DNA of 8,951 nucleotides, from positions 1 through 8,951 of IMG/VR virus record IMGVR_UViG_3300029107_000009, one strand, 5' to 3'. This stretch comes from a virus (taxonomy: Duplodnaviria; Heunggongvirae; Uroviricota; Caudoviricetes). Positions 5,423-5,770 of this stretch are shown piece after piece. How positions within the stretch are numbered: the first letter of the stretch is position 1; each line of letters opens with the position of its first letter. The notes beneath the pieces were generated by a model. That model did no database searches. It had not been told where the DNA came from and saw only the letters and a list, made by a program, of their open reading frames with translations. The translations under genes and the position numbers were made by a program.

Positions 5423-5451
5423 TTGCAACATTGATTTCGTAACGTTATTAT
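5423..5451 (+). promoter_or_regulatory. Candidate promoter of the tRNA cluster
   Basis: -35 TTGCAA (5423-5428), 17-nt spacer, -10 TATTAT (5446-5451); AT-rich upstream region; the first tRNA begins 10 nt after the -10. Confidence 0.45.
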
Positions 5452-5460
5452 CCTGCGCCC

Positions 5461-5536
5461 GGCCCTTTAGCTCAGTGGTGAGAGCGAGCGACTCATAATC
5501 GCCAGGTCGCTGGTTCAAATCCAGCAAGGGCCACCA
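5461..5536 (+). tRNA. tRNA with CAU anticodon, ileX/ileZ-like (Ile2 type after lysidine modification, or elongator Met)
   Basis: 76 nt; acceptor GGCCCTT/AAGGGCC; D-arm GCTCAGTGGTGAGAGC; anticodon loop CTCATAA; T-loop TTCAAAT; encoded CCA. Resembles E. coli ileX from memory. Confidence 0.8.
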
Positions 5537-5537
5537 A

Positions 5538-5614
5538 CCGCCACTAGCTCATCAGGAAAGAGCGTCAACCCTTTAAGTTGAGTGTGCGAGGTTCGAGTCC
5601 CCGGTGGCGGTCCA
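5538..5614 (+). tRNA. tRNA-like gene with atypical anticodon loop CCTTTAA (anticodon UUU if canonically numbered, but C at position 33)
   Basis: 77 nt; acceptor CCGCCAC/GTGGCGG; anticodon stem TCAAC/GTTGA; T-loop TTCGAGT with one A-C mismatch in the T-stem; encoded CCA. Confidence 0.55.
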
Positions 5615-5616
5615 GT

Positions 5617-5692
5617 GCCGACTTAGCTCAGTAGGTAGAGCAACTGACTTGTAATCAGTAGGTCACCAGTTCGATTCCGGTAGTCGGCACCA
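5617..5692 (+). tRNA. tRNA-Thr (anticodon UGU)
   Basis: 76 nt; acceptor GCCGACT/AGTCGGC; anticodon stem ACTGA/TCAGT with loop CTTGTAA; T-loop TTCGATT; encoded CCA. Confidence 0.8.
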
Positions 5693-5695
5693 TAT

Positions 5696-5770
5696 GCGGG
5701 CATCGTATAATGGCTATTACCTCAGCCTTCCAAGCTGATGATGCGGGTTCGATTCCTGCTGCCCGCTCCA
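5696..5770 (+). tRNA. tRNA-Gly (anticodon UCC), glyT-like
   Basis: 75 nt; acceptor GCGGGCA/TGCCCGC; anticodon stem TCAGC/GCTGA with loop CTTCCAA; T-loop TTCGATT; encoded CCA. Matches E. coli glyT as I recall it. Confidence 0.85.

Follow-up and report, generated by a model that had tools for sequence, protein, structure and literature searches.

Lambdoid phages of the Stx/933W type (Stx, Shiga toxin) carry a cassette of three tRNA genes, ileZ-argN-argO, which is located after the antiterminator gene Q, the late promoter pR', and the terminator tR', and ahead of the toxin or lysis genes. This cassette is well known, and so is the ability of phage tRNAs to act as codon helpers or in counter-defense. 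With regard to the latter, the host tRNA-Lys(UUU) is the preferred target of anti-phage nucleases: PrrC-type anticodon nucleases and the PARIS nuclease AriB both cut it, and phage tRNA-Lys variants rescue from both (PMC11464382, PMC12409363, PMC11555353). For example, phage T5's tRNA-Lys(UUU) resists PARIS AriB (PMC12409363), and infection is rescued from PrrC170 by a phage tRNA-Lys (PMC11555353). It has been hypothesized that phage tRNAs change the anticodon loop beside an unchanged anticodon and thereby evade anticodon nucleases (eLife 2023; PMC10264068, PMC11555353). Here, we analyzed a cluster of four tRNA genes in an 8,951-nucleotide stretch of Caudoviricetes DNA from a lambdoid E. coli phage (IMG/VR record IMGVR_UViG_3300029107_000009, positions 1 to 8,951), which as a whole is referred to as the window. 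Its second gene, tRNA2, is a homologue of argN that has acquired the anticodon UUU together with a C at position 33. Our leading interpretation, which we hold tentatively and to which we give somewhat less than an even chance, is that tRNA2 may be a working spare tRNA of the Lys(UUU) type that is not recognized by defense nucleases cutting Lys tRNAs.

The cassette and its relation to that of Stx phages

ARAGORN called exactly four tRNA genes in the window, all on the + strand and together spanning positions 5461-5770, and each of them passes the gathering score (29 bits) of the Rfam tRNA covariance model (CM) RF00005. They are separated by spacers of only 1-3 nt (ARAGORN coordinates). The elements of the cluster are:

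5423-5451, + strand: sigma-70-like promoter of the tRNA cluster, -35 TTGCAA, 17-nt spacer, -10 TATTAT (consensus scan)
5461-5536, + strand: tRNA1, anticodon CAU (ARAGORN; Rfam RF00005, 72.5 bits)
5538-5614, + strand: tRNA2, anticodon UUU (ARAGORN; Rfam RF00005, 44.4 bits, E = 4.9e-07)
5617-5692, + strand: tRNA3, tRNA-Thr(UGU) (ARAGORN; Rfam RF00005, 73.8 bits)
5696-5770, + strand: tRNA4, tRNA-Gly(UCC) (ARAGORN; Rfam RF00005, 61.5 bits)

The anticodons CAU, UUU, UGU, and UCC, which had been assigned in an initial annotation of the window, were recovered by both ARAGORN and the CM. The initial annotation had further proposed that the cluster has a promoter of its own. The -10 hexamer of the promoter listed above ends 10 nt from the start of tRNA1, and both hexamers are present with the same sequence and at the same position in ~60 distinct upstream haplotypes of related prophages. 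Because the hexamers are kept while the spacers and flanks change, the comparative data provide good support for a promoter dedicated to the cluster. A conserved promoter ahead of tRNA1 is a feature of the Stx cassette as well.

In the initial annotation, the cluster had been regarded as distinct from the ileZ-argN-argO trio. This distinction was not upheld by the comparison. Over the stretch comprising tRNA1 and tRNA2, DNA identity with the ileZ-argN pair of Stx phages is 91%; tRNA1 is the homologue of ileZ, tRNA2 is the homologue of argN in the slot after the ileZ-type tRNA, and argO is replaced by copies of the host genes thrU and glyT. Judged by these identities, the cluster is the familiar Stx-phage cassette, in which slot 2 has been remodeled and argO exchanged for a Thr-Gly pair. 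The two cassettes differ in the slot-2 anticodon, which is UCG in Stx phages and UUU combined with C33 here, and in the genes that follow, i.e. argO (UCU) there and the thrU/glyT copies here. Hybrids in which a Lys-type slot 2 is followed by argO are also known, for example in PPompW and Evi.

tRNA1 is labeled tRNA-Ile by RefSeq/PGAP and ileZ in Stx-phage records, in line with its earlier designation as Ile2-like; from its sequence, it is of the lysidine-dependent tRNA-Ile2 type, which would read AUA. tRNA3 is a 100% match to host thrU, and tRNA4 corresponds to host glyT with the single change C62U, which creates a G·U pair in the T stem. The gene order in the host is thrU-tyrU-glyT-thrT-tuf (L127), whereas in the phage, 3 nt separate the copies of thrU and glyT, and tyrU and the spacers are lacking (5617-5770). 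Because both genes sit together in this host operon, the phage Thr-Gly pair suggests a capture from it that was accompanied by the loss of tyrU.

The identity of tRNA2 is 84.4% to argN of Stx2a_F349, 90.9% to a sister allele with U33 described below, and 52.6% to the host tRNA-Lys, values that do not support a common descent with the host lysT family. Compared to the Stx argN allele, the loop has undergone the changes U33C, C35U, and G36U, which turn the anticodon UCG into UUU. In the stems, G30A and C40U convert a G-C into an A-U pair, G43A converts U·G into U-A, and U7C converts U·G into C-G; the few further changes are located in the D loop and the variable loop. While the Arg-type anticodon of argN is lost (C35 and G36 both to U), A20 is kept, and U73 and the A51·C63 mismatch are likewise common to Stx argN and tRNA2. 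The remolding of tRNA genes, in which an anticodon shift changes the identity, is known from organelles and bacteria. The present case resembles it in that an Arg (UCG) gene has gained a Lys (UUU) anticodon with its body kept, and differs in its setting, a phage cassette, and in its non-canonical position 33; the new identity is a predicted one.

An additional observation concerns argN itself. In Stx2a_F349 (L001:1632-1708), its acceptor stem CCGCCAU/GUGGUGG contains a G3·U70 pair, which is also present in the PPompW (L003:3132-3207) and Evi (L471:739-815) alleles of tRNA2. G3·U70 is the classical identity mark for alanyl-tRNA synthetase, which raises the possibility that argN of Shiga-toxin phages receives alanine in part.

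The arrangement of the cluster is common and not odd: the whole four-gene cluster was found in 603 of 5,426 complete E. coli genomes, and the C33 lineage of tRNA2 in 798 of them. Among IMG/VR loci, for which the counts reflect pattern-anchored samples of prophage contigs and not frequencies, 80 had the architecture Ile2-Lys*-Thr-Gly (Lys* being the Lys-type slot 2), 59 Ile2-argN-argO, 26 Ile2-wreck-argO, and 10 Ile2-Lys*-argO. tRNA2 is found in mosaic backgrounds, with very different flanks and either Thr-Gly or argO downstream, and one identical allele is dominant. Phage entries filed by isolate name (606R7, 689R5, PhiR47_1, and Evi) contain it as well. Pattern scans of genome contigs (TCAACNYTTTANGTTGA) and of viral contigs (U33 form) were unspecific, nearly all matches being random hairpins, and our view of the lineage covers E. 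coli-type prophages. A canonical tRNA-Lys with an unrelated backbone, following a match to the tRNA1 pattern, was considered as a second lambdoid example and discarded, as it belongs to an array of 22 tRNAs on a large phage contig (L219).

The tRNA2 gene bears the label tRNA-Lys in databases. Literature searches on ileZ/argN/argO and on lambdoid or prophage tRNA-Lys yielded nothing on this gene, and we could not find a description in the searchable literature of the prophage 'tRNA-Lys' as a remodeled argN with a dominant C33 allele and a U33/U38 sister.

Fold and evolutionary constraint of tRNA2

tRNA2 adopts a cloverleaf with stems of 7, 4, 5, and 5 bp, a fold on which the Rfam CM and ARAGORN agree. 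The anticodon stem UCAAC/GUUGA closes a 7-nt loop, C32-C33-U34-U35-U36-A37-A38, and the T stem CGAGG/CCCCG is not fully paired due to the A51·C63 mismatch. Both peculiarities, the C33 in the loop CCUUUAA and the A-C mismatch, had been pointed out in the initial annotation and are confirmed by sequence reading and CM alignment. It had also been considered that the CM might reject tRNA2 or find a different fold with a canonical loop; instead, the gene scored 44.4 bits with the same non-canonical loop, and no alternative register of tRNA2 yields a 7-nt loop with U33. The 3' end consists of the discriminator U73 and an encoded CCA, and further characteristic positions are C16, A20, the pair C31-G39, and U41. 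The allele in the window retains U8, A14, G18G19, U54U55C56, and A58 in addition to the 3' CCA, while U8, U12, or G18 is lost in several other alleles. Minimum free energy folding was uninformative, since tRNA1 and tRNA3, the latter being identical to a real host tRNA, likewise do not give a cloverleaf as the optimum; the cloverleaf lies above it by ~2.7 kcal/mol for tRNA2 and by ~3.8 kcal/mol for tRNA1.

The canonical U33 of the U-turn is absent from tRNA2. Among 276 distinct tRNAs called by ARAGORN in ~4 Mb of sampled loci, U33 is found in 258, and the 18 exceptions include 15 alleles of the tRNA2 gene. We found no E. coli or lambdoid elongator tRNA with C33 beyond the tRNA2 lineage in the sampled loci, where the sole other well-formed C33 tRNA is a tRNA-Ile(GAU) with the loop CCGAUAA (L143:3684-3759), which belongs to a 21-tRNA array of a 99.7-kb phage contig. 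C33 is also present in cytoplasmic initiator tRNAs of several eukaryotes and is thus tolerated in some functional tRNAs. Unlike tRNA2, these other natural C33 tRNAs are initiators or members of large virulent-phage arrays.

An alignment of 39 distinct slot-2 alleles suggests selection on the helices. Standard pairs occupy 96.6% of the stem cells, and the covariation score is 0.163 compared to a shuffle mean of 0.110 (0 of 500 shuffles reach 0.163), with slid partners giving at most 0.074. From the Arg-type to the Lys-type alleles, three pairs have switched on both sides: 7:66 from U-A to C-G, 27:43 from C-G to U-A, and 30:40 from G-C to A-U. These compensatory switches represent few evolutionary events, yet they would not be expected from a gene that was already dead. 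None of the ~16 distinct alleles seen in the C33 lineage, among them the ETEC1701 allele, which has seven changes elsewhere, varies in the UUU anticodon or at loop positions 33-38. Nine stem variants of the C33 lineage, including all common ones (20, 17, and 6 copies), keep or repair pairing, and the four substitutions that break pairing are all singletons. Computed on 70 gaplessly alignable loci, nucleotide diversity is lowest in tRNA1 (0.001), followed by tRNA3 (0.007), tRNA4 (0.010), and tRNA2 (0.021, unanchored part), and reaches ~0.2 in the flanks.

The sister allele was found in one IMG/VR contig and ~20 E. coli genomes, in the same slot and with the PGAP label tRNA-Lys. It has the loop CUUUUAU (U33, UUU, U38), a T stem without mismatches, and a compensatory U4-A69 pair; at the position of A51·C63 it carries G-C, and one further allele has A-U. 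Because the sister allele keeps UUU with a canonical U33, the Lys anticodon is a stable state of the slot-2 lineage and not a one-off lesion. The loop CCUUUAA of tRNA2 equals the host tRNA-Lys loop CUUUUAA except for position 33, and the C33 and U33 sisters each depart from the host loop at one position flanking the anticodon (33 or 38).

Candidate roles of tRNA2

The initial annotation had linked three of the anticodons to codons that are rare in E. coli. AUA, ACA, and GGA are used at ~4, 7, and 8 per 1000 codons in E. coli, and a related phage uses ATA, ACA, and GGA at 7-8, 12-13, and 12.8 per 1000, i.e. ~1.6-1.8 times as often. Codon supplementation fits tRNA1, tRNA3, and tRNA4. It does not explain tRNA2, because the related phage encodes most lysines by AAA (70-72% of Lys codons, 33-43 per 1000) and tRNA-Lys genes number six in the host (median). 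As another possible link, we considered GGGAAAG, the frameshift site of lambda G/GT, at which tRNA-Gly(UCC) and tRNA-Lys(UUU) do the decoding, but no such site is present at the G/T junction of the related phage PhiR47_1.

In the scenario that we favor, the cassette would be transcribed from its own sigma-70 promoter and, late in infection, presumably also by Q-modified polymerase reading through tR'. tRNA1, tRNA3, and tRNA4 would supplement the decoding of AUA, ACA, and GGA, codons over-used by the phage. The anticodon arm of argN would have been remodeled by the change from UCG to UUU, by U33C, and by the pair switches 27:43 and 30:40, along with 7:66 in the acceptor stem. The remodeled tRNA2 would then escape the nucleases that cut host tRNA-Lys(UUU) (PrrC-type nucleases and PARIS AriB) and keep the decoding of AAA/AAG going in lytic growth. 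The sequence comparisons establish the fold, homology, compensatory changes, and distribution of tRNA2 and its lack of the published AriB determinants, and from these features we infer its expression, lysine charging, decoding, and nuclease resistance.

AriB cleaves at U36AAUC|A41 and depends on U39, A41, and U16 (PMC12409363). tRNA2 has G39, U41, and C16 at these positions and lacks the published determinants, which is a weak test that any non-Lys tRNA body passes. According to the same study, PrrC requires ct6A37, the cyclic form of the N6-threonylcarbamoyladenosine (t6A) modification (PMC12409363). The sequence 36-UAA-38 is the determinant of t6A37, and bacterial TsaBD makes no base-specific contact to U33 (PMC13276492). 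This determinant is present in tRNA2 and absent from the sister allele (UAU), in which U38 would abolish t6A. For charging with lysine, the anticodon U34-U35-U36 required by lysyl-tRNA synthetase (LysRS) is present in tRNA2 (PMC9976931). The single flanking change in each of tRNA2 and its sister relative to the host Lys loop matches the idea that phage tRNAs mutate the anticodon loop to evade nucleases; the corresponding papers deal with virulent phages and mycobacteriophages, and position 33 is not mentioned in PMC10264068 and PMC11555353.

Among the closest described counterparts of tRNA2 is the tRNA-Lys of T5. Both are phage tRNAs with the anticodon UUU that differ in the anticodon stem and the D loop at the AriB positions (U39A, A41C, and U16C in T5), and codon bias explains neither gene. 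In contrast, the T5 tRNA is of Lys type, contains U33, and belongs to a virulent phage, and its cleavage resistance and rescue were shown by experiment, whereas tRNA2 has an Arg scaffold with C33, U73, and C31-G39, belongs to a temperate phage, and is known here from sequence alone. For PrrC, which is classically described as cutting 5' of U34, the nuclease-resistant phage tRNA-Lys is of the SP15 type. Taken further, lambdoid temperate phages might have turned argN into a nuclease-proof stand-in for tRNA-Lys(UUU), with the sister alleles as alternative escapes, namely U33C beside the PrrC-type cleavage site and A38U with the t6A determinant gone, and the cassette promoter would let the prophage shield its lysogen from toxins cutting Lys tRNAs. 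We consider this extended version doubtful and less probable than a spare Lys(UUU) tRNA as such.

Several observations weigh against a working Lys tRNA. The CM score of tRNA2 is the lowest among the four tRNAs of the cluster, the gene is skipped in two phage records carrying tRNAscan-style labels, the T stem contains the A51·C63 mismatch, and C33 is absent from all other tRNAs of these lambdoid cassettes in the 276-tRNA set. U33 makes the anticodon U-turn needed for ribosome binding (PMC13276492). A73 is a determinant of E. coli LysRS, and any other base lowers lysine acceptance (review PMC9976931); tRNA2 has U73. A C31-G39 pair, which is present in tRNA2, lowers lysine acceptance by E. coli LysRS ~100-fold (PMC1483225). 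Together, C33, U73, and C31-G39 predict poor function or poor lysine charging. Because U73 and C31-G39 are unfavorable for LysRS and A20 is kept but C35 lost with respect to arginyl-tRNA synthetase (ArgRS), tRNA2 may be a poor substrate for every synthetase. In addition, tRNA3 is identical to host thrU and retains the AriB site. It should remain AriB-sensitive beside tRNA2, and because of this host-identical tRNA-Thr(UGU), the cluster as a whole is not a complete anti-PARIS kit.

The allele spectrum points in the same direction and shows relaxed constraint. When 40 of the 798 C33-lineage genomes were sampled at even spacing, which gives rough shares, the exact window allele accounts for ~35% and near-neutral variants for ~12%, and both are labeled tRNA-Lys by PGAP. 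An allele with a 1-nt deletion in the D stem (the PPompW allele of enterohemorrhagic E. coli (EHEC) lineages) makes up ~25%, and a C4U/U8C/C11U allele ~20%; neither is called by PGAP, so that roughly half of the sampled genomic copies are uncalled alleles. Rarer alleles have a deletion in the anticodon arm or G18A, and a U8C allele is present in one wrecked prophage and two apparently complete ones. Furthermore, tRNA2 exceeds tRNA3 and tRNA4 2-3-fold and tRNA1 ~20-fold in nucleotide diversity.

These features lend themselves to an explanation that is nearly as likely as the one we favor, i.e. that tRNA2 is a decaying relic. It would be a copy of argN that lost its function with the mutation of the anticodon and U33, and that is carried along between useful tRNAs in a cassette moving as a block, with no decoding role. 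C33, A51·C63, U73, and C31-G39 are all unfavorable, about half of the genomic copies have additional lesions and are skipped by PGAP, and the anticodon arm and U12 have been deleted independently, next to the U8C and G18A alleles. tRNA2 is moreover the most variable of the four tRNAs, damaged alleles are present in otherwise complete prophages, and the slot-2 family is prone to decay, as seen in 26 loci with a wrecked argN and in many mismatched argN alleles. A relic does not, however, account for the three double compensatory switches alongside the anticodon change, which drift in a dead gene does not produce, nor for loop positions 33-38 that never vary. Stem-breaking substitutions are all singletons and common variants keep pairing, UUU persists in the sister allele, where the loop geometry is normal and the stems are perfect, and one identical allele dominates across mosaic backgrounds. 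Damaged copies also say little about the intact allele, as tRNA4 decays in some prophages, too: the glyT copy carries G3A and is unannotated in otherwise complete prophages (L475, L476) with a U8C tRNA2. Since this bona fide copy of a host tRNA decays as well, decay of some copies is no proof that intact tRNA2 is dead; accessory cassette tRNAs decay in some lysogens irrespective of the function of the intact form. A confinement of damaged alleles to degraded prophages was also considered, but the result was mixed, with complete prophages affected as well, and does not discriminate between the explanations. Regarding the three options named in the initial annotation, a Lys(UUU)-like tRNA and a degenerating tRNA are both viable and cannot be separated by sequence alone, and we found no evidence for a tRNA-derived regulatory RNA.

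Slot 2 shows additional variation in the argN-type cassettes. The remnant between tRNA-Ile2 and argO is unrecognizable as argN in the 26 loci mentioned above, and slot 2 reads CACAAACCGCCATTAGCTTATCAGGAAGAGCAGACGACACGATAAC... in 15 IMG/VR loci. Several argN alleles have A52·C62 or A6·A67 mismatches or G58, and in three loci, the 5' half of argN is fused to the 3' half of argO in a chimera with the anticodon UCU.

A third explanation, which we regard as improbable, is that tRNA2 is a structured RNA without a decoding role. It could be a tRNA-Lys(UUU) look-alike that binds and titrates a Lys anticodon nuclease or another tRNA-Lys-binding factor while being a poor substrate itself, or a tRNA-shaped spacer for processing by RNase P/RNase E. 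Such a role would reconcile the apparent selection on the helices and on a Lys-like loop with poor features for charging and ribosome binding, and the authors of the AriB study raise over-expressed viral tRNAs as competitive inhibitors (PMC12409363). With spacers of 1-3 nt, the processing of neighboring tRNAs would also depend on the folding of tRNA2. This support is indirect, and a decoy would be expected to keep the recognition elements of the nuclease, whereas tRNA2 lacks those known for AriB; the encoded CCA and the intact acceptor stem suggest a molecule made for charging.

Mis-charging is very unlikely. Here, the A20 body would be at least partly charged with arginine and insert it at AAA/AAG, resulting in a conservative Lys-to-Arg mistranslation. 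A20, the strongest Arg determinant in E. coli (PMC9976931), is kept in the D loop (AUCAGGAAA) on an Arg-type body, and the LysRS determinants of tRNA2 are incomplete. On the other hand, C35, the other major ArgRS determinant, is lost (PMC9976931), U35 and the full UUU anticodon direct LysRS, and nothing points to a benefit for the phage. Reading the loop in a shifted register, in which U34 forms the turn and UUA becomes the anticodon of an ochre suppressor, can practically be dismissed, given that the phage group shows no sign of stop-codon recoding. To our knowledge, there is no precedent for such a shifted anticodon in a 7-nt loop.

Under the extended version, counter-defense by phage tRNAs would reach from large virulent phages to common E. 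coli prophages, and a natural elongator tRNA would function with C33. If tRNA2 indeed works, about one seventh of the complete E. coli genomes would contain a prophage-encoded spare lysine tRNA on an arginine scaffold, which would be a candidate counter to PrrC, RloC, PARIS, and other systems cutting tRNA-Lys(UUU) and a natural in vivo test of the weight of U33, A73, and the 31-39 pair. The ileZ-argN-argO cassette next to the Shiga toxin genes would have to be re-read as well, from a set of rare-codon helpers to a repeatedly re-tooled slot. If tRNA2 is a relic, it provides a lesson in annotation, as the RefSeq label tRNA-Lys is given in hundreds of genomes despite features that argue against good lysine acceptance.

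Surroundings of the cassette

The location of the cluster between a late terminator and the lysis genes, as described in the initial annotation, was confirmed. Upstream, a hok/sok module, a DUF968 (YdfU) gene, and rusA precede Q. The flanking elements are:

4555-5250: antiterminator Q (Pfam Phage_antiter_Q PF06323, 306 bits)
5234-5262, + strand: candidate late promoter pR', TTGCAA-17-TATATT, overlapping the end of Q and outside the tRNA unit (consensus scan)
5314-5340, + strand: tR'-like intrinsic terminator, stem AAAACCCGC-CCACAA-GCGGGTTTT followed by a run of 7 T (sequence and hairpin scan)
6129-6156, + strand: terminator-like hairpin AACCGCCATATCTGGCGGTT with a T run, downstream of the cluster (consensus scan alone)
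6400-7560: two holins and an M15 endolysin, downstream of the cluster (Pfam)

The tR' hairpin was listed on the - strand by the scan, and its T7 run comes after the hairpin on the + strand. Between the pR'-like promoter and tR', at 5266-5339, Rfam returned sub-threshold matches to isrK/isrJ, which are small RNAs of Salmonella prophages; these matches are consistent with a short 6S-like leader RNA running from pR' to tR'. In the absence of Q, transcripts initiated at the cluster promoter could be stopped by the hairpin at 6129-6156.

The ~630 bp between tRNA-Gly and the holin genes (5771-6400) contain no convincing open reading frame (ORF). This stretch, which is the slot occupied by stx in Stx phages, is ~90% identical in phages vB_EcoS-683R6 and SerU-LTIIb and contains terminator-like hairpins at 5866-5887 and 6129-6148 (+ strand). 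The hok/sok type I toxin-antitoxin module spans 1991-2315; Rfam matched sok at 1991-2165 (113 bits), and the Hok/Gef ORF occupies 2103-2315. Downstream of the lysis genes, an ORF at 8415-8765 encodes an HNH endonuclease (Pfam HNH, 60 bits), and its position matches that of the HNH gene ahead of the small terminase subunit in related prophages. Across the cluster region, the Escherichia phage vB_EcoM-606R7 is 99.5% identical to the window.

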